DNA from: Escherichia phage JLBYU43
Sequence record: NC_105512.1
Length of the DNA stretch: 64,000 bases
Direction: 5' to 3' (one strand)
The notes below the pieces were generated by a model. It ran no database searches and was not told where the DNA came from. It was given only the letters and a program-made list of their open reading frames with translations. Shown here piece by piece: positions 15,532 through 51,694 of the stretch; position 1 is the stretch's first letter; each line of letters opens with the position of its first letter. Both the position numbers and the translations under genes were made by a program.

Positions 15532-15545
15532 TAATTTATAAATAT

Positions 15546-15574
15546 ATTATATAAGATTTCTGGACATTTAGCAA
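15546..15574 (-). promoter_or_regulatory. sigma70 early promoter (TTGCTA-17-TATAAT)
   Basis: consensus -10, near-consensus -35, exact 17-bp spacer, AT-rich upstream, conserved leader into RBS. Confidence 0.7.
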
Positions 15575-15587
15575 GTAAATTATTTAT

Positions 15588-16019
15588 TTACCAATCGTTA
15601 ACGAAACCTGAGAACTCCGAAGCAAATACTAACTCAAATTTCTCAGCAATTTCAGGATAATCCTTACAGATCAGTTCGATGCACTTCTCAGGTTCCATAC
15701 CGTCTTCTTCAGGATCACCGTAATACTTATCCCAAAGATCATCAGGAATGATATGCTCCGCCAAATCCTGAAAAGAGATTAACTGATAACGTTCTGCCTC
15801 CTCAGCGATAAGAATTTCGCACAGATCTTTATCTATATCGCTACGATAATCCGCAATTAATAGGGCATTGCAAGCATGACATTCCCAGACCATCAAACGT
15901 TCAGAGATAGGATTAGACTTATCTTGAACGTAAGACTGGAACAAGGTTCGGAAAGTTGCCTTAACTTGTTCAAACTTATCTGCTGCTGCGAAAACTAGAG
16001 CTTTATCAACTTTGTTCAT
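15588..16019 (-). CDS. hypothetical protein
   Basis: 143-aa ORF. Confidence 0.5.
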   Translation of the reverse strand: MNKVDKALVFAAADKFEQVKATFRTLFQSYVQDKSNPISERLMVWECHACNALLIADYRSDIDKDLCEILIAEEAERYQLISFQDLAEHIIPDDLWDKYYGDPEEDGMEPEKCIELICKDYPEIAEKFELVFASEFSGFVNDW

Positions 16020-16186
16020 TTTGATTCCTTCTCATCAATTTATAAAGTAATTATACAGAAACTTAAGCATTTTAGCAAATAAAACTTTTAATTAAAATGC
16101 CTAATCCTGTACCAATAGCAATACAAATGATTATAAGTATTGCTATCGCTTGTATGATTCGTTTAATAATAGCCTCAGCTATATAC

Positions 16187-16777
16187 TTAGACATTTATAT
16201 CGCCACGTAATACAGCAGCTACATCTTCCCCTATTTGTAATACTTCGCCAGTAGTACAATTAACTACTCTATCGTAACTAGTAAACTTACCAGACACAAT
16301 ATCCTCTAATGGAATTGGAGTTTTACTCATTTCAAACGAGACATTGATATAACGTGGGTCACGTAAAGAAGTAGTATGTACATGTCCGTGAATATTTAGT
16401 TTGCCACGAAGTTCATTGGGGTGCAAAGGGCAGTGAGATAGCCAAAACTTTTTGCCACCTCCAGTCTGTTTACCCAGAGCCTGAATATCATCATAAACTT
16501 CTGCTAAGTCCCTAATGCTCAGTCCTTGACGTTCCGCATCATGATTACCCATAATAAGTTGATTAGGAACATTGTGGATAACCGACTTTAATTTGGCCAG
16601 GCCTTCACGACCTACTGCAATATCTCCTAGCAAAATAAGTTTTGTTCGTTTACCAATATGCTTCGAAAGAGTATCTAGAATATACTCATCGTGCTCTTTC
16701 ATGTTCTTAAACCATGGACGAAAACGTAGTGCTCCGGGGTGGTCTAGGTGCAAGTCTGACCAGAATTTAACTTTCAT
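16187..16777 (-). CDS. metallophosphoesterase (calcineurin-like)
   Basis: motifs SDLHLD, GD, GNHD and GHVH. Confidence 0.7.
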   Translation of the reverse strand: MKVKFWSDLHLDHPGALRFRPWFKNMKEHDEYILDTLSKHIGKRTKLILLGDIAVGREGLAKLKSVIHNVPNQLIMGNHDAERQGLSIRDLAEVYDDIQALGKQTGGGKKFWLSHCPLHPNELRGKLNIHGHVHTTSLRDPRYINVSFEMSKTPIPLEDIVSGKFTSYDRVVNCTTGEVLQIGEDVAAVLRGDINV

Positions 16778-18177: not shown

Positions 18178-18274
18178 TTAATCCTCCAATCAATTTATAT
18201 AACTATTATACCAAAATTTTTAGCAAAAAGCAAGTAAAATAAAAGCCTGATCAGCTAAGATCAGGCTTTGTTTA

Positions 18275-18565
18275 TTAGTCCTCTGGATTATCATCTAGGA
18301 AATTTTTAATAGCTTCGTGCATAGTTTCTTTACGAAGCTGACGTCCAATCAGAATATGATTAGCTTCTACTCGACCATTAGGTAAACGATCCGCCAGAAC
18401 TACTACAGGAACTTGGCGCACACCAAATTTCTGCATTAATTCTGTATTATCAGTCTCTTTATGGATTTCTAAATTATAGTCATTGACTACTTTATCAAAT
18501 ACTGGCTCGAAAAGTTTGCAAGGGTTGCAAGTGGAACCTTTTAATAGATATACTAATTTACTCAT
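18275..18565 (-). CDS. thioredoxin/glutaredoxin-like protein
   Basis: 96 aa with a CNPC redox motif near the N-terminus. Confidence 0.55.
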   Translation of the reverse strand: MSKLVYLLKGSTCNPCKLFEPVFDKVVNDYNLEIHKETDNTELMQKFGVRQVPVVVLADRLPNGRVEANHILIGRQLRKETMHEAIKNFLDDNPED

Positions 18566-18989: not shown

Positions 18990-19064
18990 AATATATACCT
19001 CTCTTAACTAATTTATGTATATATTATATAATAACGAGGGCTAAAAGTCAACTACTTTTTTATC

Positions 19065-19481
19065 TTAATCTACTGCATGTATAAATCTTTTCCTAACTAG
19101 ATACATAGTTATTGGGTAAATTGAGTACATAAGTATCGGGGAGAAAAGGGTGAAATACGCTGTAACTCCCCCAGCTAACATCAAAGGTATTAATGCTAGA
19201 ATAAGGGCCATAAGAATCATGCCGAATGAAACAGCCAAAGCTATGGATATAGGATTCTCTAGTTCCATCCATAACCAACAATATTTCGTATCTCTATGGC
19301 AATTGCATTTACAAACGCCGAATGAACCCATAATTATATACTCTAGTCCGTGAATAACCTTTATTAATAAGCTATTTCGGGTAGTTAATGCAAGGATAGT
19401 AAAGACTATCATTAAAACGAATACTACTAGACTTATTTTCCAGATACCTAGCAGCATCATAGTGAATAGTTCTGCAAACAT
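19065..19481 (-). CDS. multi-pass membrane protein
   Basis: 138 aa with 3-4 hydrophobic helices. Confidence 0.45.
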   Translation of the reverse strand: MFAELFTMMLLGIWKISLVVFVLMIVFTILALTTRNSLLIKVIHGLEYIIMGSFGVCKCNCHRDTKYCWLWMELENPISIALAVSFGMILMALILALIPLMLAGGVTAYFTLFSPILMYSIYPITMYLVRKRFIHAVD

Positions 19482-23547: not shown

Positions 23548-23699
23548 ATTTAATCCTCTTGCCTCAATCTATAAACATATTATACAATACTTGTGGCATC
23601 TGAGCAACTGAAATTTTATTACAAAAAATAGCCCAGTCGCAAAATTGCAGGCTGGGCTTTGTCATTATTATTCTTGCTAGGAGGTGATTATCATCACTC

Positions 23700-25397: not shown

Positions 25398-25683
25398 CGT
25401 CCTCTTTACAGTCACGGCATACATCATAATCATTGAAAGAATGTTCGTGAGCTTCACACCACCAAGAACAAGAATCGCACAAGAAAATTTCTGTTTTCTC
25501 TATTGACTGTCCAAGCAGTTCGTCTGCTTCATCTTCTGTGATTTTCAAACTACAAACATCAGCAACACGTTTAACAATCATTTTACCTGCTTCATGATAA
25601 GACATACAAGTCCCAACAACATCATGCTCAAGTACGTGAACAGCACAGTCTAGGCGAGTTTTCATTTCAAAGCTCCTTATCAA
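25384..25683 (-). CDS. Cys-rich acidic protein
   Basis: 99 aa with CDSCSWWC and CRDC motifs. Confidence 0.45.
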   Translation of the reverse strand: MIRSFEMKTRLDCAVHVLEHDVVGTCMSYHEAGKMIVKRVADVCSLKITEDEADELLGQSIEKTEIFLCDSCSWWCEAHEHSFNDYDVCRDCKEDDEDE

Positions 25684-25736
25684 TTTATGTAAATATTATA
25701 TCAATAAAGAGGACTTTCGTCAAGTAAATTTTTAAG

Positions 25737-26255
25737 TTATCTACTCTTTTCTTTTATAATATTAGATATAGTAGGTTGGCTAACACCAAACATAGCAGCT
25801 AAAGCCGATTGTCCAAATTCTTTGCTTCTAGGTTGATAATGTGTGCGTATCCAATATACATCTGCATCTGATAACTTACACCTTCCGTGCTGCTCTCCTT
25901 TAGCTCTCTTTTCAGGGCTATTTAATCCAGTATTGTACGCATGTTCCATATTTTCTTCTGCCGTCACCCACTCTAGGTTACTTTCCTCGTTGTTATACTT
26001 ATTGCCATCTAGGTGGTTAACAAAAGGTTTGTTATCTGGGTTAGACACATAATGCTCTGCAACTAGCCTATGTATCCTATACTTTCTACACTTACCTGTC
26101 TCATAGTAAAGATTTACTATTAAGTAACCTTGTCTATTCACTTGAGGTTTAAGAATTTTACCAGATAAGTAACTCAGAACATTTCCTTTATTACTTATCT
26201 GATATTTACCCTCAAAACCTGTTATATCTTTCCAGGTTTCCACTAGTATCCTCAA
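25737..26255 (-). CDS. HNH homing endonuclease
   Basis: NUMOD4-like N-terminus, HNH core (HRLVAEHY...NHLDGNK), C-terminal HTH. Confidence 0.7.
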   Translation of the reverse strand: MRILVETWKDITGFEGKYQISNKGNVLSYLSGKILKPQVNRQGYLIVNLYYETGKCRKYRIHRLVAEHYVSNPDNKPFVNHLDGNKYNNEESNLEWVTAEENMEHAYNTGLNSPEKRAKGEQHGRCKLSDADVYWIRTHYQPRSKEFGQSALAAMFGVSQPTISNIIKEKSR

Positions 26256-28683: not shown

Positions 28684-28757
28684 TTGGTTTCCCTCTCATT
28701 AATTTATATAAATATTATAACAAGAAATAAGAGAGAAGGCAAATGAATTTTTAAATT

Positions 28758-28832
28758 TGGTGCTCCCACCAGGAGTCGAACCTAGTTCAGATGCTTACAA
28801 GGCAACTGCATCGCCAGCAATGCTTTAGGAGC
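28758..28832 (-). tRNA. tRNA-Thr (UGU)
   Basis: acceptor and T-arm fold, CCA encoded, loop CTTGTAA. Confidence 0.6.
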
Positions 28833-30362: not shown

Positions 30363-30456
30363 TGGCGGAAAAGATGGGAGTTGAACCCATAAGGCGGTAT
30401 TGCTACCACTCAACCGATTTCCAATCGGGTTTAGTCACCAGTCTATTTGCTTTTCC
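30363..30456 (-). tRNA. tRNA-Ser (GGA), long variable arm
   Basis: perfect acceptor GGAAAAG/CTTTTCC, CCA encoded, loop TTGGAAA. Confidence 0.5.
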
Positions 30457-31207: not shown

Positions 31208-31467
31208 AAATTCTTTAGTTTACTAAGGCTATTAGCTCGGTGTGCGTATTACCCTCAGACATTAGCCAGTAGAGGATAACCGCTCTTCACAAACCCGATA
31301 CACTATTCAGTTGCCGCTGAATCTAGTGGACTAATCTAGAACTTCTCCCGAGTCGTAGGGATTGTGCTTTTTGGCAGCCAGTCCTAGGTCGAGCTAATAC
31401 CTTAGTGAACTTTGATGAGGATTTCTCCTCATCAATTTATATAAATATTATAACAAGAAATTAAACA

Positions 31468-31827
31468 TTAAGCAAGTACATTTTTGCAGATTTCTTGTAT
31501 TTCCTTAACGTCACTAACGAAAAGGTAATCAGAGCTTCCAGAGTGCATACTCTGCATAACCACACCACCATCCGGTGCATCTTCTTTCAAAGTAATACCT
31601 AACCAGAACTTGGCAAAACTAGGTGTTACCTCACCTTGACTTGCCTTGAACACATCGCCTTCTGTGATCTCTTGACCAGTGGAGAGTCCCATGTATGGTA
31701 CGTTCAGATCAATATCTTTGTAGAACTCAGCTAGATCTTGCTCGAAATCCCAACCTTTAGAGATAGCGAACTCCATTGTTACATGACCGAAATAGCCTTG
31801 AACCTTGCTTGATAATTGCATTTGCAA
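31468..31827 (-). CDS. hypothetical protein
   Basis: 119-aa ORF. Confidence 0.5.
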   Translation of the reverse strand: MQMQLSSKVQGYFGHVTMEFAISKGWDFEQDLAEFYKDIDLNVPYMGLSTGQEITEGDVFKASQGEVTPSFAKFWLGITLKEDAPDGGVVMQSMHSGSSDYLFVSDVKEIQEICKNVLA

Positions 31828-32803: not shown

Positions 32804-33119
32804 AATATTCTTTGTTAACTCACTTTATAAGATATATTATACAGAGAATTAAGTGAAATAGCAAATGAATTTTTAATAAATTTACTTATTGCGTAGGCCA
32901 CCTGGAGGGTTCAAGCCCCACGGCTGACAAAGAAGTTTGCGAGACTTCTCTTAAATGCCAGAATAGACCCGCCGATCTATCGGAACCTACATAATAAGTA
33001 AACTTTCGTTTACCTACACCTACCTGGTCGGGAGGATTTTCAGCGACTAGAACCGGCCGGAAACTCATCGCCTTGTTTACCCTGTAGTCCCACTATAAGT
33101 GACGCGACCTACAAAGATT

Positions 33120-34526: not shown

Positions 34527-34632
34527 ATATTTGAATGAAAAGTAAGTCGGTTAAACTCAAAGTGGAATATTTCAGGAAATCCTGACTTTACCCCTAAAAG
34601 CAACTCGCTTAATTACTTCTCATTCAGATATG

Positions 34633-34661
34633 TTTCCAAAGTAGATAACTATTATATCAAG
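34633..34661 (-). promoter_or_regulatory. sigma70 promoter upstream of the tRNA cluster (TTGCTC-17-TATAAT)
   Basis: consensus -10 and 17-bp spacer on the minus strand; a 13-bp-stem hairpin lies immediately upstream at 34662-34701; ~110-nt leader before tRNA-Tyr. Confidence 0.5.
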
Positions 34662-34715
34662 TTTTATGGCACTGAGCAAGTCAGATTTTAAAGAACTTGC
34701 TCAGTGCTATATCAG

Positions 34716-35009
34716 TTAATCAAATGAAGGAGTGACTTTCAAAGTGAATGGAAGTTCGAATACCTCTTCACCTTCATCAGTAACAGTGACTACTCGACCC
34801 TCTAGATTATTCATGCTGATTTCAACATCAGCCGTAGCATCAGGAGCCATACCAGCCTCAATACATTGAGCTTTGATCTCTGGAAGAAGTTCTACATTGT
34901 AGAAATAAAGCCACTCGATCTCACCTTCCCAACCACCCCAGGATTTACATACTGAGCTTTCAATACCAGTTGCTGTAACACGTTTTGACATTCTGATTCC
35001 TCTCATCAA
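34716..35009 (-). CDS. hypothetical protein
   Basis: 97-aa ORF. Confidence 0.5.
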   Translation of the reverse strand: MMRGIRMSKRVTATGIESSVCKSWGGWEGEIEWLYFYNVELLPEIKAQCIEAGMAPDATADVEISMNNLEGRVVTVTDEGEEVFELPFTLKVTPSFD

Positions 35010-35080
35010 TTTATATAACTATTATATCAGAAATTTAAGGCAAAAGGCAAGTACATTTTTAAAAATTCTGTTTGGAGGAG

Positions 35081-35543: not shown

Positions 35544-35632
35544 TGGAGGAAGAAGTGGGAATCGAACCCACAAGGCTATATTTCAAACTGACAGATTAGC
35601 AATCTGCTGCAATACCGTTATGCTATTCTTCC
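35544..35632 (-). tRNA. tRNA-Ser (GCU), long variable arm
   Basis: perfect acceptor GGAAGAA/TTCTTCC, loop TTGCTAA, CCA encoded. Confidence 0.55.
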
Positions 35633-35653
35633 GAATTTATAAGATATATTATA

Positions 35654-36172
35654 TTAGAAATTTAGCTTCATAGCAAGAAAATTTTTCAAGTTTTCGGTAG
35701 ACATCTCATCCACATCTACAGGAGAAACAAATCCATTTAATTGTTTAGCAAATTTTTCACCTGCAGGATCATTATCCCCAACAGCTACCAATTTAAAAGG
35801 TAGTAATTTCAATTGCTTTAACAACGCTTTTCCAGGGGAAGAACCCAACATTGCTAGGGCTGGATAACCAGCATTATGTAATGCAACTGCCTTAAATACA
35901 GATTCAGCAATCAATACTACTTTTTCATCTCCATTGAGAGTTTCTAGTCCCCATACACACTGGGTAGTAGAATAAGTAAAATATTTAGCTTCAAAGGGAC
36001 ACTTACCATGACCTTTTGGAGCAGAAGGATTATAAGTTTGATAGCCCCTCAACATCCCAGAGAAATCATATAACGGGACTGTTAGCCATCCTTCCGGACT
36101 TAACCAGCAATGATATTTTTCTGTATCAAATCCCCTAGATAGAAGGTGCTGTGTTAGCTCATCAACACTCAT
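35654..36172 (-). CDS. Toprim-domain protein (primase-like)
   Basis: conserved Glu (LIAES) and DxD (VAVGDNDPAG) typical of DnaG-type Toprim. Confidence 0.45.
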   Translation of the reverse strand: MSVDELTQHLLSRGFDTEKYHCWLSPEGWLTVPLYDFSGMLRGYQTYNPSAPKGHGKCPFEAKYFTYSTTQCVWGLETLNGDEKVVLIAESVFKAVALHNAGYPALAMLGSSPGKALLKQLKLLPFKLVAVGDNDPAGEKFAKQLNGFVSPVDVDEMSTENLKNFLAMKLNF

Positions 36173-37995: not shown

Positions 37996-38478
37996 CTAAC
38001 CAAAGTTAGTAAATTCTTTATGTAAGGATTCTCTTAATATCTTAGAGGCCTCGAAAGCCTCTTCCGCAGTTTTAAACCCTCTTTTACTGTAATTTTTTCC
38101 TTCATGTCTTACTTGGTATCTCCAGGAAGAGCCTTCCCAACTTACTCCTTTGTACCCAGAAGTATTATTGCATTGTTGGTTTCTATTCGCATTGTTTTGC
38201 GATCTAGAGGCGTCCCTTAGATTATTTTTCCTATTATTTCTAGGATTAGTATCCTTATGATCTACTTCTTCAGGCCTATATCCATAGTACATAATAAACA
38301 ATAAGACATGCAGTTGATAGGTGTCGCCCTGAAATCCCACATCTGGGTGTGATTTCTTATTATTGGCACAACACTCTTTCAAACCTTTCTTTGTTTTCCT
38401 ATATAGTACCCCATTATCAGGATCAGCTACAAAATATTTTTCAAGTATTTCTTTAGTAGGGTATTCTTTCCTTTTCAT
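37996..38478 (-). CDS. HNH endonuclease with AP2-like domain
   Basis: HNH motif (EVDHKDTNPRNN) plus C-terminal YKGVSWEGSSWRYQV. Confidence 0.65.
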   Translation of the reverse strand: MKRKEYPTKEILEKYFVADPDNGVLYRKTKKGLKECCANNKKSHPDVGFQGDTYQLHVLLFIMYYGYRPEEVDHKDTNPRNNRKNNLRDASRSQNNANRNQQCNNTSGYKGVSWEGSSWRYQVRHEGKNYSKRGFKTAEEAFEASKILRESLHKEFTNFG

Positions 38479-38521
38479 GAAACTATTATATCAACTTTTT
38501 CGATGTTAAGCAAATCAATTT

Positions 38522-38965
38522 TTAATTAAATTCGCCAGCAACCTGAGCAGCAATGCCACCGTCGTAACGACCAGGAAACTCTTCCTTAATCGCTTTCATC
38601 AGCATACCTTTTGTAATCCCAGGATTCAACTTAACTAATTCTGCAAAGTATTTGCGAATCTCAGAATCAGATAACTGAGGCGGCAGATACTGCTGTAACC
38701 ATTTGTTCAGTATATATTCATACTGAGCAGACTGCAAGCTATAATTATCAAGGTCTTGACCGTGAAGTTTAGCTTTCGTCTGATTAATGCTTTTCAGTTG
38801 AGCTTTTAGATAAGATACAAACTGTTCAGAAGTAATGAAGTCTTTATCAACACGCTGAAGATCTCCGATTATGGTCTGGTAGCTTTTAGCTACTTCTTTA
38901 TCAGAACCATTAAACTTGGATTCCTGCAAAGCCCTACGCAAAACATCTAGAATATTCTCTTCCAT
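38522..38965 (-). CDS. GatB/YqeY-domain protein
   Basis: 147 aa; C-terminal pattern (GITKGMLMKAIKEEFPGRYDG) resembles the YqeY family. Confidence 0.5.
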   Translation of the reverse strand: MEENILDVLRRALQESKFNGSDKEVAKSYQTIIGDLQRVDKDFITSEQFVSYLKAQLKSINQTKAKLHGQDLDNYSLQSAQYEYILNKWLQQYLPPQLSDSEIRKYFAELVKLNPGITKGMLMKAIKEEFPGRYDGGIAAQVAGEFN

Positions 38966-39156
38966 TATTTAATTCCCAGTGCTTGGTTAAAAGATTGTTC
39001 TGTCATAACTGCTGAGACTTTGGCGAAATCAAACTTCTTAGGATTTGTAGTAATTTCAGCAACGTTAGTAGTTTTAACTGTTTTCGTAGTACGAATACCG
39101 TGAGTGTTAACACCAATAATTACTAAGGTTTTCATTGTTCGCTTTCCTCTCATCAA
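38965..39156 (-). CDS. hypothetical protein
   Basis: 63-aa ORF. Confidence 0.4.
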   Translation of the reverse strand: MMRGKRTMKTLVIIGVNTHGIRTTKTVKTTNVAEITTNPKKFDFAKVSAVMTEQSFNQALGIK

Positions 39157-39204
39157 TTTATACAGTTATTATACAGAATTTTAAGGCTTAAAGCAATTGA
39201 ATTT

Positions 39205-39651
39205 TTAAATTTTCTTAGTCACAGGCTTATAGAACGTGTGGCCTTGAATTTTAGTTGTTTTCTTGAACGTTTTCGTCCAGTACGGCTTTTCTTTACCACT
39301 ATGGAAGTATAACGCTCCATATGTTGGATCATGTGGTAAATCAACGTAGTATATCACTCTAGCTACATTCTTAGCAGTTTGCCAAGCCGCATCGGTTTTA
39401 TCAACTTTTGGTCTCTTAGATACCCAAGAGAACTGGTTAGACTGATATACTACTTTACAGTAAGAATCCGGGAATGTGCCAGAGTTAACACGGTTTTTAG
39501 TGACCTGTGCAACTGCAACCATTCCCTTCGTGCCCTCACCTCGGCTCTCAAAATAGACATTTTTTGCAATGCAATCAATCTGTTTAGCGTCGTAGGTAGC
39601 ATGACTCTGAAAGCTAAAGGTTAGGGCAGCCATTAGTAAGACTGCCTTCAT
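39205..39651 (-). CDS. secreted cell-wall hydrolase (SleB-like)
   Basis: signal peptide plus Hydrolase_2-like core (NVYFESRGEG...GALYFH). Confidence 0.6.
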   Translation of the reverse strand: MKAVLLMAALTFSFQSHATYDAKQIDCIAKNVYFESRGEGTKGMVAVAQVTKNRVNSGTFPDSYCKVVYQSNQFSWVSKRPKVDKTDAAWQTAKNVARVIYYVDLPHDPTYGALYFHSGKEKPYWTKTFKKTTKIQGHTFYKPVTKKI

Positions 39652-39663: not shown

Positions 39664-40485
39664 TTAAAATAGATCATATTCTAATCTATTGGGATTTTCT
39701 CGGTATCCATAAGACGTAAGGGTTCCTCTCATGTACTCTGCGTCAACAGGATTAGATGTTACTAGAACCACTTTTAGTGGTCTTTGACCTAAAAATAGTA
39801 TATGATCTAATAAATCTTTTCCTTGTACCTCTGGATCCCCTAAATCTGAGTCCATAAATAAATAGGATCCTGTGAAACTAAACATATCTGATAGTTCCAG
39901 CGCACCTATAACTGTACGACAAATAATGGACATTTCAGGTAGATCTCTAACATCGTCTATTAGAATATTGGTCTGCTTCCCAATTTCTGCATTACATAAA
40001 CCATTTACTAGTTTTTCTCTTTCCCCTTTAGCTTGTTCGAAAGTGGTGAAGCCAGGAGATACGAAAAACTTTCCACCTAATGTAATGCTATACGCAAAAC
40101 CCTCGGAGAGGAGTTCTACACCTACGGTTTTATCAGTATTAATCCTATTTAACTTAAAATTTGTCTCTCTTAGATTAAGAATTCTGTTATCCCACGGTAT
40201 GGTATTTATATGGTCGATCATATCAGGTGGCTCTTCACCATAATGGAGCAACCACGCTATTCGGTGCCCATAAATAATTGTGGGTTTATTACCTAAGAGC
40301 AAGCTAACTCTGATGTACCCATTAGAGTTCTTACTACATATTTCTCTCCCAGCATATAGGGTGTGCCAAGTTTTATTCTTGTATTTATTAGGCTTATAAA
40401 ATAATTTACCTGTATAAGGATTATATTCTATAATTTCTCGAATATAATCTATATATGATAGTATTTGTTTTTGTAATTTACCCAT
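39664..40485 (-). CDS. HNH homing endonuclease
   Basis: HNH motif (HRIAWLLHYG...IDHIN...N). Confidence 0.65.
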   Translation of the reverse strand: MGKLQKQILSYIDYIREIIEYNPYTGKLFYKPNKYKNKTWHTLYAGREICSKNSNGYIRVSLLLGNKPTIIYGHRIAWLLHYGEEPPDMIDHINTIPWDNRILNLRETNFKLNRINTDKTVGVELLSEGFAYSITLGGKFFVSPGFTTFEQAKGEREKLVNGLCNAEIGKQTNILIDDVRDLPEMSIICRTVIGALELSDMFSFTGSYLFMDSDLGDPEVQGKDLLDHILFLGQRPLKVVLVTSNPVDAEYMRGTLTSYGYRENPNRLEYDLF

Positions 40486-40936
40486 AATAGCCTCGTCTCA
40501 TCAATTTAAAAATATATTATATAGAAAACTAAACTAATTAGCAAATACATTTTTAAATTGAGAGACTAGTAAACCGATAAACAGCCTAGAGGCGCCACAG
40601 GCCATATCTTATGAGCCATGTACCTTTGATCTAGGGTTTGAATCATCAACGAATACTTTGCATCTTTTAGCTTTAGAAGGTTAGAAGTTTGAGTGCTTTT
40701 AACTTTTCAGCTTTCATACTTGAGCGTTGATCTTTGAAGTTGTGTTGGTACTACCAACGACGTCTTGTTTTATTTTGACAGATGCAACATCTGCCGAAAA
40801 ATAAATTAAGATAATCTCCAATAGATTATACTGTATCTAGTATGGTCAGCGGTCTTATTTAACCTCGTATTTCAACCGCTGCTGCGAGGTAAGATGCTTG
40901 GGCTTTCGTCTACCGATTTACTAGTCTTTTAAATTA

Positions 40937-41811: not shown

Positions 41812-41881
41812 ATTTGTTTTCCTTTTATTGTTTTCTCAAATTTATGAATATATTATACAGAATTTTGGAGCCGGAAGCAAA

Positions 41882-42583
41882 TCAAATTTTCATTTTTTCG
41901 ATCATAGCTGCAACACAATAGCTCTCAACTAGGGCATCGAATGCTGGGTCGTGCTTAACCGGATAGATCCCATAACGAATGGTGTCCATCTTCTCCATTT
42001 TAGCTATTGCCCAGCTAATACCTTCGGTTTCTAGAGCTTTATAACTATAGCCAGTTTGCATCCAGAGATTACGAAGAGATCTAACATTACCCAAGTTCCA
42101 GAATTTCCACGGAACTATTTCTTCATTGGTTCCAGCATGGAAAGTGTTTGCAGAGTAGATAGTCATATCAAACTCTGGGCCATTGCCATAATACAAAGCA
42201 TTTTCGCCTAGAGCCAACTCCATAATATTTTGAGCCATAGAGAAGGCAGCATGGTTAGAGCCAAGTTTATTAGTGCAATGATGTTTACCATTTTGGAAGG
42301 CAACCAGTTTTGGATTAGGCTCATTCATAGCTTCCATAATGTGGATAGCAGACGGGCTATGTTTAGCCTGATCCATCCAGAATGCTAGAGTAGATGCTGT
42401 AACTTTGGCACCAGAATTAAGTTGATCTTGTACATCTAAAGTAACAAATACTAGATCAGGGTCTTTATCAATTCCATGCATAGCCACAAAAGCGAATGAA
42501 GGCATTGCGATATGGGTAGTACCACAATCTCCTGGAGTTCCTAGAGATTCAATATCTAGCATACCAAATGGTTTTACTTTCAT
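41882..42583 (-). CDS. putative 3'-5' exonuclease (DEDD-like)
   Basis: Exo I-like LDIESLG and Exo III-like HDPAFDAL motifs. Confidence 0.45.
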   Translation of the reverse strand: MKVKPFGMLDIESLGTPGDCGTTHIAMPSFAFVAMHGIDKDPDLVFVTLDVQDQLNSGAKVTASTLAFWMDQAKHSPSAIHIMEAMNEPNPKLVAFQNGKHHCTNKLGSNHAAFSMAQNIMELALGENALYYGNGPEFDMTIYSANTFHAGTNEEIVPWKFWNLGNVRSLRNLWMQTGYSYKALETEGISWAIAKMEKMDTIRYGIYPVKHDPAFDALVESYCVAAMIEKMKI

Positions 42584-43390: not shown

Positions 43391-43473
43391 TATTTGTTTT
43401 CCTTTTTGTTTATCAATTTATGAAGTATATTATACGAGAATTTGAAGCGTTTAGCAAATGAATTTTTTAAAAA

Positions 43474-43752
43474 TTATCTACCAACCATCTTAGCTTGTTC
43501 GGCATCTGAGACATATTGATACGCCCCTTTATTATACGCCGGAGCAGTACACATTTTCTTACGCTCAATCTCTTCCTGAGCTTTTCTTTCACGTTCAGCT
43601 AATTCTTCATCCAGATAAACTAAACGTTGCTCTGGAGGAGGTGGAAGACGTGTTTCTGGCTCACCAATATTAGCCTTTCTTATTTGACGAGGTGATTGTG
43701 CACGTTTTCTCAATGGTTTAAATCCTAATGAATTTGAGTTATAAATTCGCAT
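43474..43752 (-). CDS. hypothetical protein
   Basis: 92-aa ORF. Confidence 0.45.
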   Translation of the reverse strand: MRIYNSNSLGFKPLRKRAQSPRQIRKANIGEPETRLPPPPEQRLVYLDEELAERERKAQEEIERKKMCTAPAYNKGAYQYVSDAEQAKMVGR

Positions 43753-43828
43753 AAAGCCCTCCTCACTTTCAATACGAATATTATACTAAATTAGAGGGCT
43801 TTAAGCAAGAAAATTTTTAATTTATTTA

Positions 43829-44305
43829 TCACATCTCAGCCATTTCAGCTTCAGTAATAACTGTGTTGCACAATGCATCTACAGCTTCATTACCACTAAT
43901 ACCAGAATGCCCTTTAACCTTAATAAAGGTAGGATTAGTATTATGAAAGTTGATATACTGCTGTGTTAATTTAAATGCTTCCTGCCAAAGTTCTAGATTA
44001 AGAGGAACTTCACCATCTGCTTTCTTCCAGCCTTTCCTTTGCCAAGAAAACATCCAACTTTCCATACCATTTTTGCAATAAGCAGAATCAGTATAGATAG
44101 CAATTGGTCTATTATCTTTTTTAACAGACCAACGTAGAGCTTCTACAATAGCTGTGAGTTCCATCTCATTATTTGTAGTTTTAGGATTATAACCAGATTT
44201 AGAACCTAAACGATCGTCGTTATCATCATAGACAATAAAACCCCAAGCACCTGGACCTGGGTTAGACTTACAAGCACCATCTGTGTAAATGTGGAAAACG
44301 CTCAC
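43829..44305 (-). CDS. rnh: ribonuclease H
   Basis: RNase HI signature (YTDGAC...ELTA...TDS). Confidence 0.8.
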   Translation of the reverse strand: MSVFHIYTDGACKSNPGPGAWGFIVYDDNDDRLGSKSGYNPKTTNNEMELTAIVEALRWSVKKDNRPIAIYTDSAYCKNGMESWMFSWQRKGWKKADGEVPLNLELWQEAFKLTQQYINFHNTNPTFIKVKGHSGISGNEAVDALCNTVITEAEMAEM

Positions 44306-45226: not shown

Positions 45227-45325
45227 TTTATTATCCTTTTGTACTTATTGAGTATATTATATTTGAAATTGTACTTAATAAGCAAATACAATTTCAAATA
45301 TAATAGTCCCGAAGGACTATTTAAG

Positions 45326-47840: not shown

Positions 47841-47910
47841 TGATTTTCCTCTTTCTCACTATTTCAGGAATATTATAGCAAATCTGGTAGCGATTAGCAA
47901 GTAAAATTTC

Positions 47911-47948
47911 AAAGAAAAAGGAGACCCGAAGATCTCCTTGTTTTTATT
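47911..47948. terminator. bidirectional hairpin terminator between nrdA and nrdB
   Basis: AGGAGA/TCTCCT stem with A-tract on one side and T-tract on the other. Confidence 0.45.
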
Positions 47949-50277
47949 AAATAGTACAACCACCGGATGCACAACCGGCTGCTTCTTCTCCAGCACCTCC
48001 ACCATTTGCGGTATTGAAGTTTGCATAGTAGAAAGTTTTCCACCCATACTTAACAGCAGTCATGAAATCACGAACTACTACTGGGCCAGGAATGATTTCA
48101 TTCTCAAACTTGGTGTAGTCATAGTACATATTCGTACTGATAGACTGACTGAAGAATTTCTGCATAGTTGCTACCCATTTGATCCACTCGATACGATCTA
48201 CATCATAAGCCAGTTTATAGCTCATTAACGTTTCCCAATCAGTTGCACCTGGAGCAATTGCAATTACTTTATTAACTGCACTACCCTTGATAGATACAAT
48301 CTTACGAGGTGGTTCGATAGAGTTAGTAACACCTAACAGAACAGAAGAACTTTCTCCCGGCATCTGAGCAGTCAGAACAGAGTTACGCATACCATATTTC
48401 AGAATATCTGCACGCAGAGACTCCCAATCCATTTCTAGACCTACAGATACCAGTTCATCAACAGTTTTCTTGTACGTGTCGATTACCAGAATTCCTTTAG
48501 ACGGTTTAGTACGATCAAACCACTCACATGCACCCTGTTCTTTAGCTAGGCGTACAGAGGCTTTATGCAGGAAGTAAGACAGTTTTTCAGCCTCACGGTG
48601 GATCCAGTTACGGGCTTCAATACCTTCATAAGCCAGACCTTCTGCTGCCATTGCACCTGCTGCGTTCATTAGGCCAATACCAACATTACGACGTTTCTTA
48701 GCCGTATATTCCATAGTTGGGAACGGATAATCCTGAATTTCAATAATTGTATCAACGAATTTCAGGAGGATGTAGCAAGTTTTTTCCCACTCAGCCAGAG
48801 ATTCCATGCGTCCAAGTACAACACCACCTAAGTTACACAGAGATACTTCACCAATATCCTCCGGCTTCATTTGATCAAGCTGCTCTTTTGTCTTATACAG
48901 TTCTGTGATATGATGGAACGGGCGTGTAGGCTGAGTAATTTCAACACAAAGGTTTGTCATACGGATCGGATCAAGGAAGTTACCATGACGATTAGATTCC
49001 CCGATGTGATGAGCATACATACGTCCTGTTTCCATTCGGATACGTAGCCAAGTATCTAGGATTTCTTTTGCGGAAACTTTAGGAGCTGCTGGAACTGTTT
49101 TTCCTTCATGATCGATCTTTGTAAGAGATGCCACACGTTTCTCCGCTGCCACGTAGATTTCTTCAAATTTAGCCTCGTCATCACTATAAAACGCTTCATG
49201 AACTTCTGGAGCATAGAAGTATGACATTAGCGTAATATCTTCGTTTTTAAGATAACGTTTTAACAAAAGATTGTTAAAGCTCAGAGAATAATCCATCTTA
49301 TCGATTTTATTCTCATCTGTAGCACGTTGTTGCTTAACCTGCATCAATTGAATGATTTCAGGGTCGAAGTATGGATAAGACACTGTGGCAGAACCACCAC
49401 GAGTTTGCTGAGTATTGGCCTTTACTGAGCGGTCAATGTGTCGATAATATGGCAGTTTTCCGGAATGCGGGAATGCCCCATTTCGCACCGGATCAGCAAT
49501 TGATCGGCTTTCAAGATGATACCCGATTCCCGCTCTGGCTGCGACCATTTTGAAGACGATGTGCTCGGCGGTGTCGATTGAATCCAACGTGTCAGTGGAA
49601 TCCACGAGGCAGCAACTAGCAAATCCACGGTCACTAGAGCGCAGACCAACCAGTGGCGGCGTAGGAACGTTGATTTTGTGGAGTGACATTGCGTTGTAGA
49701 GGTCGATTGCATCTAGAATTGTCCAGTTAGGTTGAGATAGCATCGCCATTGCCATACCCATGTAGGCAAACTGCGGAGTTTCGTAAATTTCACCAGTGGC
49801 TATGTTGCGACGGGAATACTTATCAAAGAACTGCTTCAGTCCACCACTAGTAAAAAGACGATCACGATCATGGTCGATAACCTGATTCAGAGCTTCAAAT
49901 TGCTCATCGGTAATCCATGCACTCATGTCTTCCCATGCACCTACGCTAACCATATGGTCATGGAAGAAGCGTAGAGAAGGTGGTTCGAAAGAGTCATAGA
50001 GGCGCTTACGCATTTGCGCAAGACGTAATTCCTTTGCTGGCACATCGTATGCTGGGTTATCTTTAATAAGACTTTCAGCAGCTTTAATTAATGCATCCAT
50101 CAGAGTGTCGGAATCTACAACCCCTTTAGGCAGAGTTTTTTGAGCAGCCATAGTAATGGCTGACCAACTTACATCAACTGTTTTGCAACCATACTCTGCC
50201 CAACCATTGATTTTTTCAGGAGCAAAGTCTTCTACAGTACCGTCACGTTTAATTACTTTTTCAATGCGATGGCTCAT
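47947..50277 (-). CDS. nrdA: ribonucleotide reductase class Ia alpha subunit
   Basis: ATP-cone N-terminus; start set to ATG 50277 (AGGAAAG RBS), trimming a 35-aa upstream extension in the track. Confidence 0.85.
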   Translation of the reverse strand: MSHRIEKVIKRDGTVEDFAPEKINGWAEYGCKTVDVSWSAITMAAQKTLPKGVVDSDTLMDALIKAAESLIKDNPAYDVPAKELRLAQMRKRLYDSFEPPSLRFFHDHMVSVGAWEDMSAWITDEQFEALNQVIDHDRDRLFTSGGLKQFFDKYSRRNIATGEIYETPQFAYMGMAMAMLSQPNWTILDAIDLYNAMSLHKINVPTPPLVGLRSSDRGFASCCLVDSTDTLDSIDTAEHIVFKMVAARAGIGYHLESRSIADPVRNGAFPHSGKLPYYRHIDRSVKANTQQTRGGSATVSYPYFDPEIIQLMQVKQQRATDENKIDKMDYSLSFNNLLLKRYLKNEDITLMSYFYAPEVHEAFYSDDEAKFEEIYVAAEKRVASLTKIDHEGKTVPAAPKVSAKEILDTWLRIRMETGRMYAHHIGESNRHGNFLDPIRMTNLCVEITQPTRPFHHITELYKTKEQLDQMKPEDIGEVSLCNLGGVVLGRMESLAEWEKTCYILLKFVDTIIEIQDYPFPTMEYTAKKRRNVGIGLMNAAGAMAAEGLAYEGIEARNWIHREAEKLSYFLHKASVRLAKEQGACEWFDRTKPSKGILVIDTYKKTVDELVSVGLEMDWESLRADILKYGMRNSVLTAQMPGESSSVLLGVTNSIEPPRKIVSIKGSAVNKVIAIAPGATDWETLMSYKLAYDVDRIEWIKWVATMQKFFSQSISTNMYYDYTKFENEIIPGPVVVRDFMTAVKYGWKTFYYANFNTANGGGAGEEAAGCASGGCTI

Positions 50278-50419
50278 TTGGCTTTCCTTTTTATAGTTAT
50301 CAGGATTTAAGGAATATTCTACTTTATTATCGGTCATTAGGCAAATAAAATTTTCTGATAGAAAAGGCCCGAGTATTTTCATACCCAGGCCCTGTGTATT
50401 ACCAGTCTAGCTTTTTAGC

Positions 50420-50641
50420 TTATTCAATTACTTTAGCTCTAGCTACTTCTTTTAATAGAATATCTATGGAGGTGCTCAGCTCGTTATAATTGAATGGTTT
50501 ATTTGGATTTGAGGTTACAATTTTCCACGCTAGGGTTGTCTTAGGACTTTCTTCCCCTTCCTTACGTGTAATAATATTAGCAGCACTCAGTGAAGTACGA
50601 TGTATTTTAGTTTTACGGCTCAGATGAACGACGTTTCCCAT
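50420..50641 (-). CDS. hypothetical protein
   Basis: start set to the internal ATG with a GGGGAAGGTG RBS just after the phoH stop. Confidence 0.4.
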   Translation of the reverse strand: MGNVVHLSRKTKIHRTSLSAANIITRKEGEESPKTTLAWKIVTSNPNKPFNYNELSTSIDILLKEVARAKVIE

Positions 50642-50642
50642 A

Positions 50643-51404
50643 TTACACCTTCCCCATGTCTTTAAAAATACCATAGAATGCTTTAGACTCAACAGAACGA
50701 ACGTTATCAATCAATTCGATCATTGAGAATGGGGCATTTTCATATTTCTCATAGACTTCCATAAGGAGTGCTAGACCTGAGTCACCTTTAATGTCTTTCT
50801 GAGCTATATCTCCGCAGATAATTAAACGGCAGTCTTGTCCTACACGAGTTAGGAGACAAATCATTGCCTCAACGGAAATATTCTGAGCTTCATCGACAAT
50901 TACATAGGAGTTGTTGAAAGTTCTGCCACGAGCATGTTCGATAGCCAAAAATTTAATTTTCTGACGTTCGACATATCCCTTATATGCATGATCTCCGATG
51001 GCCCATTTCATACCATCAGCTATTGGCTCCAACCAAGGCTCTAGCTTTTCCGCTAGATCACCAGGAAGCATACCAAGAGACTTACCTAGAGGTTCATTAG
51101 GACGTACGAGGATCACTTGCTCAATATCTGAGTGAATGTCTACGAGTTCCTGAGCTGCAAGAACGGACGGAATAAAGGTTTTACCAGTACCTGGCTCACC
51201 GATACCCACAGTCACTGTGTTGTTCTTGATCATATTGATATATGATTTTTGCTCGCGGTTTTTACCTACTAGGGATTTAGCAACTGGGTTAGCGTAATCA
51301 TTAGAAAAATCAGCCTGAATTACGTTATTCTCATATTTGTTGCCACGCTTTCTTGAACCATTGCGGTTCTCTCTTTTTTGACGTGCTTTTCCCATAAATA
51401 ACAC
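50643..51404 (-). CDS. phoH: PhoH-like ATPase
   Basis: Walker A GEPGTGKT, PhoH-like architecture. Confidence 0.8.
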   Translation of the reverse strand: MLFMGKARQKRENRNGSRKRGNKYENNVIQADFSNDYANPVAKSLVGKNREQKSYINMIKNNTVTVGIGEPGTGKTFIPSVLAAQELVDIHSDIEQVILVRPNEPLGKSLGMLPGDLAEKLEPWLEPIADGMKWAIGDHAYKGYVERQKIKFLAIEHARGRTFNNSYVIVDEAQNISVEAMICLLTRVGQDCRLIICGDIAQKDIKGDSGLALLMEVYEKYENAPFSMIELIDNVRSVESKAFYGIFKDMGKV

Positions 51405-51694
51405 TCCTATAGTGTACTTCGCTTCTAACAGAGGATCAACAAAAAGATCTTGTTTATCAACTTACAAATATATTATACCAATATATGTGGGAGAAAGCAA
51501 CTACAATTTTAAATAAGCATATGATATTGCATTTAAATAAAAAATTTGCTTGCTTATAGAGGCAGAAATATGATACTAGATAATCATTTATTTATACGCA
51601 AAATATTACAGTATTAGATGACGAAAGAAAATTTTAATTGACATAGTGGATAATGTTTAGTATAATAGGTGTAAAAATTCTGTGGAGAAGGGGA

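Follow-up and report, generated by a model that had tools for sequence, protein, structure and literature searches.

T5-type early promoters in the genome of Escherichia phage JLBYU43: copy number, anatomy and transcription units

The early promoters of bacteriophage T5 are the source of the 'T5 promoter' of expression vectors and of the N25 promoter-escape model. Their consensus, TTGCTT-N17-18-TATAATA, was reportedly given by Wang et al. in 2005, and Gentz and Bujard are said to have mapped initiation at T5 early promoters in vitro in 1985. The initial transcribed sequence (ITS) or 'downstream sequence region' of N25 was reportedly worked on by Kammerer et al. in 1986 and by the Hsu laboratory, and Arbiol et al., in 2010, are said to have described the PeSL (promoter-early stem-loop) cassettes of T4-type phages.

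The early promoters of T5 share an A/T discriminator and have been validated by primer extension (PMC7472727), and the discriminator is the main difference between the early and the late promoters (Klimuk et al., 2020, PMC7472727). In phage AKFV33, 32 promoters have been described with TTGCTw and TATAATA elements separated by 17–18 bp, AAAAATT at −43 and TAAATT at +1 (PMC3326045). When +3 to +20 of N25 was swapped for the anti-DSR sequence, full-length RNA fell ~10-fold and the half-time of escape rose from 3 min to ~45 min (PMC12464699).

Here we followed up a repeated promoter-like element in a 64-kb stretch of DNA (hereafter the window) from Escherichia phage JLBYU43 (NC_105512.1), a T5-like member of the Demerecviridae with ~94% identity to Salmonella phage bux. 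The copies are very probably early-class promoters of a T5-like phage that would be read by the host sigma-70 holoenzyme. By their sequence, they are assigned to the long-known family of very strong promoters through which the host polymerase transcribes the early genes of T5 and related phages, a feature already catalogued for such phages.

Copy number, extent and anatomy of the promoter family

The initial annotation had counted more than 20 copies of the cassette, and this count was borne out. The pattern TTGC[AT]-N18-TATAAT has 20 exact matches in the window (16 on the minus strand and four on the plus strand), whereas 0.21 ± 0.48 are expected from dinucleotide shuffles and none of 100 shuffles reached 20. 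A position weight matrix (PWM), trained on the window only and spanning from 25 nt before the −35 through 25 nt after the −10, gave 26 strong sites with scores above 36 (36–68; best random score 9–15) and two weaker matches, 45284 and 50344, that are probably promoters as well. The orientation agrees with that of the sites' own genes in all 26 strong cases.

Cassettes do occupy the range originally given for them, 15533–51490, but the family spans wider, from 12293 to 62980, and the plus-strand copies reported at 54413, 61966 and 62978 are present, at 54414, 61966 and 62980. By contrast, the statement that almost every minus-strand gene is preceded by a copy did not hold, since 21 strong minus-strand promoters stand against ~76 ORFs and 23 tRNAs between 10 and 51.5 kb; promoter density is ~1 per 3.6 ORFs, and minus-strand promoters are spaced 351–4556 bp apart. 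Restriction to the early region was judged within the 64-kb window, the late genes lying outside it. In the pre-early region below 12.2 kb, which is syntenic with the T5 terminal repeat, no PWM match scored above 7.8, and pre-early promoters of the T5 early type were therefore rejected for 1–12.2 kb. A scan of 1–12.5 kb with a generic sigma-70 consensus returned 40 promoter-like sites versus 37.9 in shuffles, so that weak promoter matches are uninformative in this genome.

As first described, the −10 is TATAAT in all 26 strong sites (TATAATA in 25). The supposedly exact 17-bp spacer fits 25 of them, site 35049 being better aligned with 18 bp, and the proposed −35, TTGC(T/A)x, describes most sites (TTGCTT in 10, TTGCTA in seven, TTGCTC in two, another TTGCxx in three) but is replaced by TTGACx at four. 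The upstream A/T tract is real: the 14 nt before the −35 are 84% A+T, compared with 61% window-wide, AAAWWT occurs upstream of the −35 in 19 of the 26 sites, and the information content of the PWM is highest 5–10 nt before the −35. A TGn extended −10 is not a feature of the whole family; TGn lies just before the −10 at 12 sites, TG is one base nearer at seven, as in N25 itself, and neither occurs at the remaining seven. The discriminator is exactly ATATT at 4/26 sites, fits the relaxed form A[TGA][ATC][TC] at 22/26 and has a mean G+C of 1.08/6. The predicted +1 is the seventh base after the −10, extrapolated from N25 for every site. Directly upstream of four to five of the 26 cassettes there is a strong hairpin (18233, 23607, 47900, 54414 and, weakly, 61966).

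The likeness of these sigma-70 cassettes to T5 P_N25 is supported by orthology with T5 and by recovery of named T5 promoters. The P_N25 sequence is 100% identical to positions 63048–63117 of T5 (AY543070), annotated as 'promoter P-N 25' before gene D2; from −35 to +25, site 61966 shares 58 of 60 bases with T5 P-N25, and site 62980 likewise shares 58 of 60 with T5 P-N26. The window-trained PWM recovers P-N25, P-N26, the ligA promoter and P-K28a in T5, matches three 'T5 promoter consensus' sites of AKFV33 at their exact annotated coordinates, and finds 26 sites in bux. The T5 early region was compared by exact-pattern search, and the homologous region yielded 23 matches, 17 of them inside annotated early promoters and four more under 'repeat b/c' features, which cover the −10-to-RBS segment. 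When 20 cassettes of the window are compared with their bux orthologs, identity is 100% in the −10, 95.8% in the −35, 95.0% at +1 to +10, 84% in the A/T block, 80% in the spacer and 66–79% in the flanks; this comparison indicates that both hexamers and the first ten transcribed bases are under purifying selection.

In the mechanism that we propose, each cassette would owe unusual promoter strength to a stack of elements: an A/T block at ~−43 (AAAAATT), which may act like an UP element or as curved DNA, a TTGCTw −35, an A/T-rich 17-bp spacer, a perfect extended −10 (TATAATA), an A/T-rich discriminator and, as a conserved ITS, a purine-rich stretch of ~10 bases from the start of the transcript (+1 AUAAAUUGA). 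Polymerase binds promoters of this kind so tightly that escape becomes rate-limiting, and at T5 N25 it is the native ITS that allows escape to be fast. Ahead of a protein gene, the short leader also holds the Shine-Dalgarno (SD) sequence GAGAGG, so that mRNA 5′ UTRs would be only 21–27 nt long, whereas tRNA and stable-RNA units would use the promoter module without an RBS. The copies would split the early region into ~25 short transcription units. Several cassettes are joined to the terminator with which the unit before them ends. We infer the initiation, strength and escape function of the JLBYU43 promoters from the T5 literature and from orthology; in the literature collection searched, no relevant study turned up on TSS-seq of T5-like phages or on T5 ncRNA.

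Promoter copies along the early region

The minus-strand copies begin with site 12293 (12239..12318; −35 TTGACG at 12288–12293, −10 at 12265–12270, predicted +1 at 12258), the weakest of the strong set (PWM 36.3), whose target is a 61-aa minus-strand ORF (12047..12232) with an SD-led ATG 26 nt from +1. Site 15574 (15520..15599; −35 at 15569–15574, −10 at 15546–15551, predicted +1 at 15539) carries a full leader, ATAAATTAATGAGAGAGG, and then ATG, and site 16078 (16024..16103; predicted +1 at 16043) has the 29-bp core of the T5 'putative early promoter T5P9'. Site 18233 (18179..18258; predicted +1 at 18198) abuts a terminator hairpin (dG −17.9), the T-tract of which doubles as the upstream A/T block of the promoter; a terminator hairpin (dG −15.9) is also found upstream of site 23607 (23553..23632; predicted +1 at 23572). 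A TTGACT −35 characterizes the minus-strand cassette at 18997..19076 (predicted +1 at 19016; PWM 41.9), with an SD-led ATG at +27, and a TTGACG −35 the one at 25669..25748 (predicted +1 at 25688; PWM 54.2), with the ITS ATAAATTGATAAGGAG. The cassette at 28688..28767, also on the minus strand (TTGCCT; predicted +1 at 28707; PWM 64.1), begins just past the 3′ end of tRNA-Thr (28758–28832), and site 35049 (34995..35074, minus strand; TTGCCT, best with an 18-bp spacer; predicted +1 at 35014; PWM 50.1) has the full leader ATAAATTGATGAGAGG.

Further along the minus strand, the predicted +1 of site 38513 (38459..38538), at 38478, coincides with the first base of the start codon ATG in an ORF for an HNH endonuclease (37996..38478), which makes this a candidate for a leaderless mRNA; bux shows this arrangement too. 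Site 39196 (39142..39221; predicted +1 at 39161) has a full leader, and its 29-bp core recurs unchanged in bux and T5 (T5P8), though at a locus that is not orthologous. The cassette at 40490..40569 (predicted +1 at 40509) serves a 273-aa ORF (39664..40485), and at site 41880 (41826..41905; predicted +1 at 41845) the ITS, ATAAATTTGAG, is kept in spite of an SD placed 20 nt farther downstream. The 29-bp cores of sites 43457 (43403..43482; predicted +1 at ~43421–43422) and 43808 (43754..43833; predicted +1 at 43773) are those of the T5 'putative early promoter T5P25' and of 'T5P26', respectively. Site 45284 (45230..45310; TTGCTT, 18-bp spacer, TATAAT) is a probable promoter; its low PWM score (11.9) is explained by the 17-bp register on which the matrix is built, and the syntenic site in bux, 35997, scores 33.9. 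Site 47900 (47846..47925; predicted +1 at 47865), with its terminator hairpin directly upstream, serves an nrdB-size ORF and has one core mismatch to T5 'T5P28'. The other probable, weaker promoter, site 50344 (50290..50369; TTGCCT-17-TAGAAT; PWM 27.1), precedes a 776-aa nrdA-size ORF and is by position the counterpart of T5 'T5P29'. Site 51500 (51446..51525; predicted +1 at 51465, 70-nt leader) is the positional counterpart of T5 'T5P30'; it closes the minus-strand series and lies at the divergence point.

Divergent from it, the first plus-strand copy (51613..51692; predicted +1 at 51673; PWM 38.6) has the consensus −35, TTGACA. The plus-strand series continues with site 54414 (54389..54468; predicted +1 at 54449), the counterpart of T5 'T5P31', which is fused to the terminator after an nrdD-size ORF (dG −16.4), and with site 57759 (57734..57813; predicted +1 at 57794), the ortholog of T5 'T5P32', after which ~590 ORF-free nt precede the gene for a 929-aa origin-binding protein. 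The P-N25 ortholog, site 61966 (61941..62020; predicted +1 at 62001), has the top PWM score (68.4) and stands before a D2-size ORF (62026..62730); the P-N26 ortholog, site 62980 (62955..63034; predicted +1 at 63015), stands with a 51-nt leader before a D3-size ORF (63066..63476).

Copies at tRNA clusters had been described as carrying the leader but no start codon. Sites 31475, 32864 and 34679 indeed lack an SD-led ORF, but the leader is full only at 31475, shifted and partial at 32864 and essentially missing at 34679. Site 31475 (31421..31500, minus strand; predicted +1 at 31440) aligns base-for-base with its T5 ortholog, 'promoter P13b', and no ORF follows; it precedes an RNA2H ortholog and then tRNA-Ala/Leu, and its ITS folds as a 5′ hairpin. 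It is predicted to drive the ortholog of T5 'RNA2H', hence the lack of a start codon. This ortholog (31227..31399, minus strand) can be aligned with the misc_RNA that the T5 record lists as 'RNA2H, stable RNA with unknown functions' and forms the structured core of a 233-nt leader from site 31475 (fold z = −6.0), with 69 pairs, 11 of them compensatory, and 98.7% paired versus 28–42% when slid. At site 32864 (32810..32889, minus strand), which is T5 'promoter P13a' by position, the predicted +1 (32829) is 26 nt before tRNA-Pro, and site 34679 (34625..34704, minus strand; predicted +1 at 34644), 'promoter P14a' by position, has a 118-nt structured leader ahead of tRNA-Tyr (fold z = −4.6). A fourth tRNA-proximal copy, absent from the initial annotation, is site 35676 (35622..35701, minus strand), with its predicted +1 (35641) 9 nt before tRNA-Ser(gct) and a 29-bp core identical to the T5 copy; it sits within the 3′ end of a Toprim ORF (35654..36172).

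Downstream of promoter 57759 we observed a conserved, unannotated structured RNA candidate of ~430 nt (~57930–58360), which has invariant scaffold helices and a core in two very divergent, structurally equivalent versions. A coding element was rejected here, as there is no conserved ORF and a 60-aa minus-strand ORF is truncated in S.Hadar. Rfam searches at E ≤ 1 gave no match for 57700–58450, the type B version of the ~430-nt element, 31208–31440 or 34527–34644. We put forward only tentatively that some cassettes may be dedicated promoters for conserved structured ncRNAs (the RNA2H ortholog and the ~430-nt RNA) rather than for mRNA. If real, the ~430-nt RNA would represent a phage RNA family not described before, with a plausible link to the start of replication or to regulation of the origin-binding protein.

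The transcribed leader and rival explanations

The 20-mer quoted in the initial annotation as the conserved leader matches only six sites at ≤3 mismatches, while a shorter core at +1, ATAAATTGA, is conserved. The 'leader' is three parts and not one: an A/T discriminator, an ITS and, where an ORF follows, an SD. The core occurs seven times in the window, each time directly after TATAAT; as the +1 to +9 consensus it carries 7.3 bits at SD-proximal sites and 4.6 bits without SD. The ITS motif is missing at three of the 26 sites (34679, 38513 and 47900) and is therefore not obligatory. A recognisable ITS is kept without a proximal SD at 31475, 35676, 41880, 43457, 51500 and 57759, and this, together with the occurrence of the core only after TATAAT, argues that the ITS belongs to the promoter and not to the RBS alone. 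Across the cassettes the purine content of +1 to +20 is 70%. An SD-led start codon lies 21–27 nt from +1 at 16/26 sites, where +10 to +18 holds 6.9 bits, mostly GAGAGG. Since SD and ITS overlap physically, their contributions to conservation are not fully separable by sequence alone.

It is highly improbable that the leader serves translation initiation alone, as an A/U-rich enhancer joined to the SD GAGAGG, and has no role in transcription. The 16 SD-led starts and the GAGAGG at +10 to +18 are what such a module would give, but the +1 to +9 core persists at the six sites just named without proximal SD or ORF, all seven copies of the core are at TATAAT although most genes of the region (~76 ORFs, 21 minus-strand promoters) have no cassette, +1 to +10 is conserved as strongly as the −35, and changes at +3 to +20 of N25 affect RNA synthesis in vitro, where translation is absent (PMC12464699). 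Discriminator and ITS might, separately, be a handle for coordinated early shut-off, that is, a class-specific target (the shared A/T discriminator and +1 AUAAAUUGA) at which the ortholog of gpT5.026, or some other phage-encoded nuclease or DNA- or RNA-binding protein, would shut off the early units jointly at the early-to-late switch. In favor of such a target, gpT5.026 lowers the affinity of RNAP for the −5/+2 segment of N25 (Klimuk et al., 2020, PMC7472727), its loss raises early transcripts, and it is mainly in the discriminator that early and late promoters differ (PMC7472727); the pre-early part of the window has no copy of the motif, which is therefore class-specific, and +1 to +10 is under strong constraint. 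However, gpT5.026 has in vitro effects of ≤~2-fold and phage mutated in it remain viable (PMC7472727), exact ATATT is found at only four sites, the known escape function already accounts for the conservation, and the window offers no late promoters for comparison, so that we regard this role as unlikely.

The cassettes could also be mobile or recombinogenic modules like the T4-type PeSL, through which gene modules are shuffled and which spread by ectopic conversion, a reading that we consider improbable. In the one genome pair used for breakpoint analysis, window versus bux, 6–8 of 46 breakpoints fall within 15–30 bp of a cassette (p = 0.02–0.05, all-positions null), but against an intergenic null the enrichment is lost (4 vs. 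4.1 expected at 15 bp, p = 0.62; 6 vs. 4.6 at 30 bp, p = 0.30), and cassette-mediated module shuffling was rejected as unsupported. One 29-bp core is shared by bux 2132 and 29541, loci that are not orthologous, and is identical to window 39196 and T5 T5P8, three non-orthologous pairs have ≤2 spacer mismatches versus 0.15 expected, and EPS7-type phages have the RNA2H core without the promoter module. Yet most non-orthologous pairs differ at 8–11 of the 17 spacer positions, so that recent duplication was rejected as the origin of the repeat and cassette similarity is taken to reflect functional constraint, and the shared stretch, only ~30 bp, is short for homologous recombination; two to three pairs hint at occasional copying. 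Finally, chance sigma-70-like hexamers, as a compositional artefact of a genome with 61% A+T, can hardly be credited. The loose scan of 1–12.5 kb, no richer than its shuffles, is compatible with it, but the excess of strict matches, PWM scores far above the random maximum, full co-orientation and positional orthology of the sites in T5, AKFV33 and bux are not, and the shuffle controls had already refuted it.

Comparison with known promoter systems

There is very little new in the promoter family itself, a textbook family re-discovered from raw sequence; its anatomy is in the literature on T5 and AKFV33, and public records carry annotations of it. Practical value lies in an exact, strand-resolved promoter map for the JLBYU43 genome, which is absent from most GenBank records of T5-like phages; the record of bux, for example, holds CDS and tRNA features only. 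The map also reveals non-coding transcription units and so leads to stable or structured RNAs of the kind first described in T5 decades ago. Comparison within the family shows equal constraint on +1 to +10 and on the −35, which supports applying the escape results from N25 class-wide.

Compared with the early promoters of T5 (P-N25, P-N26, P25, P26, P-K28a/b, P13a/b and P14a/b), JLBYU43 has the same −35, spacer and −10, and the AAAAATT block at −43 and TAAATT at +1 are common to both phages. The copies occupy the same genomic positions ahead of the same genes, and individual copies are identical or one to two bases apart. The differences are only strain-level: upstream flanks vary with differing neighbour genes, certain cores have changed places (15574 and 39196 vs. 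T5 P8 and P22), and the set of units is slightly different, consistent with the HNH and tRNA content of JLBYU43. The AKFV33 catalogue (Niu et al., 2012) has the same early-promoter anatomy. With regard to the N25 ITS, site 61966 carries it unaltered and the family has the first 9–10 bases and 70% purine in common; escape function was measured for N25 and engineered variants, whereas a family-wide role is suggested by conservation.

Promoters with an rrnB P1-type UP element and 'full consensus' promoters resemble the cassettes in the upstream A/T-rich block, the near-consensus hexamers and the 17-bp spacing, but the −35 of JLBYU43 is TTGCTw and not TTGACA in 22/26, and rRNA promoters have a G/C-rich discriminator, whereas the cassettes have an A/T-rich one and a conserved transcribed region. 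The likeness to PeSL consists in repeated early promoters in a hyperplastic region with many small ORFs and homing endonucleases, and in the fusion of some copies (4–5/26) to a stem-loop or terminator. In contrast to PeSL, the JLBYU43 unit does not always include a stem-loop, and the excess of breakpoints is gone under the intergenic null.

Genome layout and census of the promoter cassettes

The window is a segment of a T5-like siphovirus genome of the family Demerecviridae. A total of 569 phage records match 12 kb of it, the best being Salmonella phage bux (Epseptimavirus, 94% identity), and T5 gene order is kept. The first ~10 kb (taken as 1-12200 in our promoter scan) are syntenic with the terminal-repeat (pre-early) region of T5, the minus-strand early block with its 23 tRNA genes extends over 10-51.4 kb, and the replication block on the plus strand begins at 51.6 kb. 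The leftward early block gives way to the rightward one at a divergent, back-to-back pair of cassettes, 51500 (-) and 51638 (+), at 51446-51692 (promoters are named here by the window position of the -35), and the minimum of the cumulative GC skew coincides with this pair. The tRNA callers differ at two places. A weak Rfam tRNA at 37886-37957 (-; 35.5 bits) is missed by ARAGORN, is listed as tRNA-OTHER in bux and has a pseudo-tRNA marked nearby in T5; tRNA-Ser(gga) at 30363-30456 (-) is called by ARAGORN and not by Rfam, and its T5 counterpart is marked as a pseudogene.

The initial annotation described more than 20 copies of a promoter-leader cassette at 15533-51490, and the repeated element is real. 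The strict pattern TTGC[AT]-N18-TATAAT has 20 matches against 0.21 expected, and none of 100 shuffles reaches 20, which excludes a compositional artefact. Aligned in register, the sites have far more in common than the -35 and -10 hexamers. A position-weight matrix (PWM) spanning both hexamers plus 25 nt on either side of the pair, iterated against Markov-shuffled controls, puts the copy count at 26 strong sites (scores 36-68; random maximum 9-15) and two probable, weaker ones (45284 and 50344), with 50698 dubious. The family spans 12293 to 62980, a wider range than first described, and the statement that it precedes almost every minus-strand gene was too strong: between 10 and 51.5 kb there are 21 strong minus-strand promoters for 76 ORFs (a crude gene count) and 23 tRNAs, i.e., one per 3.6 ORFs at spacings of 351-4556 bp. 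Orientation matches the surrounding genes at all 26 sites (21 on the minus strand of the minus domain, five on the plus strand of the plus domain).

TATAAT is present in all 26 sites and TATAATA in 25, a 17-bp spacer fits 25, and 17 have TTGCTT or TTGCTA as their -35 and four have TTGACx. A+T makes up 84% of the 14 nt preceding the -35, the discriminator has a mean G+C of 1.1 in 6 (exact ATATT in four of the 26 sites), and purines make up 70% of +1..+20 on the non-template strand. At the 16/26 sites followed by a protein gene, a Shine-Dalgarno sequence (SD), GAGAGG, occupies about +11..+16, with a start codon 21-27 nt from +1. An intrinsic-terminator hairpin adjoins four to five cassettes (18233, 23607, 47900, 54414 and, weakly, 61966), its T-tract merging into the A/T block; the fusions at 18179-18290, 23553-23660, 47846-47960 and 54350-54468 have hairpin dG of -14 to -18, and the same adjacency is present in the T5 record. 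By contrast, the PWM scan of the pre-early region (1-12200) found no early-type cassette and no score above 7.8, and generic sigma-70-like sites were not in excess there (40 vs. 37.9 in shuffles); therefore, pre-early promoters must belong to another, less stereotyped type.

Constraint on the initial transcribed sequence

The conserved leader first described is indeed present, but it is not a single unit. Since the SD adjoins the +1 core where a protein gene follows, the leader is better read as discriminator, initial transcribed sequence (ITS) and SD, and the 20-nt version originally quoted matches only six sites at ≤3 mismatches. A purely translational module is contradicted by the copies that lack an SD and still keep a recognisable leader core: the +1 core is found without a nearby SD or without any ORF at 31475, 35676, 41880, 43457, 51500 and 57759. 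In addition, ATAAATTGA occurs seven times in the 64 kb, each time directly after TATAAT. Among 20 orthologous window/bux cassettes, identity is 100% in the -10, 95.8% in the -35, 95.0% in +1..+10, 86.7% in the discriminator, 84% in the A/T block, 80% in the spacer and 66-79% in the flanks; thus, +1..+10 is as constrained as the -35. Judged from these sequence comparisons, the +1 core appears to be part of the promoter and not merely a ribosome-binding site, and the cassette would stack sigma-70 recognition and post-recognition elements. At T5 N25, RNA polymerase (RNAP) is reported to form an extremely stable open complex, escape being rate-limiting; exchanging +3..+20 for a pyrimidine-rich 'anti' sequence reportedly reduces full-length RNA ~10-fold and stretches the half-time of escape from 3 min to ~45 min (Kammerer et al. 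1986, as cited in PMC12464699). An A/T discriminator is common to T5 early promoters, and the RNAP-binding protein gpT5.026 weakens the -5/+2 contacts (Klimuk et al.; PMC7472727).

The cassettes might also act in recombination, as do the promoter-early stem-loop (PeSL) cassettes of T4-type phages. Six to eight of the 46 window/bux breakpoints do fall at or near cassettes (p = 0.02-0.05 vs. all positions), but the enrichment is lost when intergenic positions serve as the null (p = 0.3-0.6). In most comparisons of non-orthologous copies, 8-11 of the 17 spacer positions are different, so it is function, not recent duplication, that keeps the family alike. Three non-orthologous pairs have ≤2 spacer mismatches (0.15 expected), and an identical 29-bp core, TTGCTTTAAGCCTTAAAATTCTGTATAAT, lies at two non-orthologous loci: the window carries it at the second locus only (39168-39196, -), T5 at the first only (6993-7021 of its locus L004) and bux at both (2104-2132 and 29513-29541 of its locus L005). 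These cases suggest that cassettes may occasionally be copied or converted from one another.

Non-coding transcription units and a candidate leaderless gene

Copies without a start codon before tRNA clusters, as originally noted, were recovered on the minus strand at 31475 (+1 at 31440, 233 nt before tRNA-Ala; T5 P13b), 32864 (+1 at 32829, 26 nt before tRNA-Pro) and 34679 (+1 at 34644, 118 nt before tRNA-Tyr), the latter two at the positions of T5 'P13a' and 'P14a', respectively. Another, 35676 (-; +1 at 35641), 9 nt before tRNA-Ser, is without annotation in AY587007 and was absent from the initial annotation.

Ordinary mRNA leaders are unstructured (z about 0). The 233-nt leader of 31475, found in more than 420 phage records, folds at -82.1 vs. 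-55.3 ± 4.5 kcal/mol in shuffles (z = -6.0), and 11 of the 69 pairs in its comparative structure carry compensatory changes; the share of paired cells is 98.7% vs. 28-42% with slid partners, and covarying pairs number 11 vs. 0-2. An annotation in the T5 record AY543070 explains this structure: 'promoter P13b' and tRNA-Ala flank 'RNA2H, stable RNA with unknown functions', which aligns to window 31227-31399 (-). By alignment and position, this segment is the RNA2H ortholog; it lacks annotation in bux and in the other relatives that were examined. Its closing helix is 22 bp long, and its 3' domain has two covarying versions; PSa2 and bombadil, both EPS7-type phages, have the RNA2H core but neither the promoter nor the ITS hairpin. 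The 118-nt leader between 34679 and tRNA-Tyr (34527-34644, -) is also structured (MFE -32.8 vs. -19.6 ± 2.9, z = -4.6); its counterpart is without annotation in T5, where P14a lies about 97 nt from tRNA-Tyr.

Promoter 28742 (28737-28767, -) begins right after the 3' end of tRNA-Thr (28758-28832), so that its A/T block directly abuts the tRNA, and the two annotations overlap in AY587007. The promoter feeding tRNA-Ser/Met (35622-35701, -) falls within the 3' end of an ORF (35654..36172; 172 aa, Toprim domain) whose T5 counterpart is annotated 'DNA primase'; in bux, unrelated small genes replace this ORF, and window homology ends at the predicted +1 (35640).

On the plus strand, ~590 nt without an ORF (57794-58380) separate promoter 57759 (T5 'T5P32') from the origin-binding protein gene (929 aa). 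More than 250 records conserve this stretch, which neither T5 record annotates. Within it, a putative structured RNA of ~430 nt is predicted on the plus strand at 57930-58360. Eight phages show nearly invariant flanks and scaffold helices, along with a ~300-nt core that occurs in two very divergent versions; the alignment effectively holds two lineages only, and its centre is uncertain. RNAalifold gives 85 pairs, 17 with compensatory changes; 98.5% of cells are paired vs. 36-52% with slid partners, covarying pairs are 17 vs. 1-4, and 0/500 shuffles reach the observed covariation score. The outer scaffold is reproduced by the type B sequence folded alone, and, as G·U pairs account for 16.4% of cells, the paired fraction drops from 98.5% for the transcribed strand to 82.1% for its complement. 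An Rfam search of the candidate gave no match, and a check of coding potential gave no conserved ORF. We regard it as a lead rather than a finding. Beside it, at ~57833-57929 (+; alignment columns 105-200), a 97-bp insertion flanked by TTTTTCTT direct repeats and with its own hairpin looks like a small inserted element; it is present in the window and Salmonella phage S.Hadar 4-5-1 and absent from T5, FFH1, 1-29, BUCT632, STG2 and Cit2.

The predicted +1 of promoter 38513 (38459-38538, -) is the A of the ATG of ORF 37996-38478 (-), a homing endonuclease of 160 aa (HNH_3; Pfam E = 1.2e-11), and no SD is possible. In bux, bux_97 likewise starts at the predicted +1 although the promoter spacer differs, and the ORF is a candidate for a leaderless mRNA.

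Relation to the T5 early promoter family

The comparison with T5 P_N25 made in the initial annotation was right in kind. The P_N25 sequence, searched against the phage collection, is 100% identical to AY543070 63048-63117, annotated 'promoter P-N 25' upstream of D2, with 'P-N 26' upstream of D3. Their window counterparts, 61966 and 62980, precede ORFs of D2 and D3 sizes, respectively, and each shares 58/60 bases (-35 to +25) with its T5 counterpart, the upstream flanks differing. The second T5 record, AY587007, carries 'putative early promoters' T5P6 to T5P37 throughout the homologous region, and its 'repeat b/c' features cover the -10-to-RBS segment; of 23 strict-pattern matches there, 17 lie within annotated promoters and four more under repeat b/c. 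The cores of 16078, 43457 and 43808 are identical to those of T5P9, T5P25 and T5P26, respectively. The window-trained PWM scores 62.3 for P-N25, 55.7 for P-N26, 54.6 for the ligA promoter and 64.6 for P-K28a in T5, finds 26 sites in bux, and recovers three AKFV33 annotations at exact coordinates.

Taken together, the cassettes are the T5 early promoter family known from earlier work, and nothing in the element is novel. The useful yield is a precise promoter map of the JLBYU43 genome, family-wide evidence that the ITS is constrained, and pointers to non-coding transcription units. The AKFV33 record labels orthologous sites 'T5 promoter consensus TTGCTT (N17-18) TATAATA (Wang et al. 2005)', and its genome is reported to carry 32 promoters of this kind, in which AAAAATT lies at -43 and TAAATT at +1 (PMC3326045), an anatomy that matches, nearly word for word, the cassette of the initial annotation.
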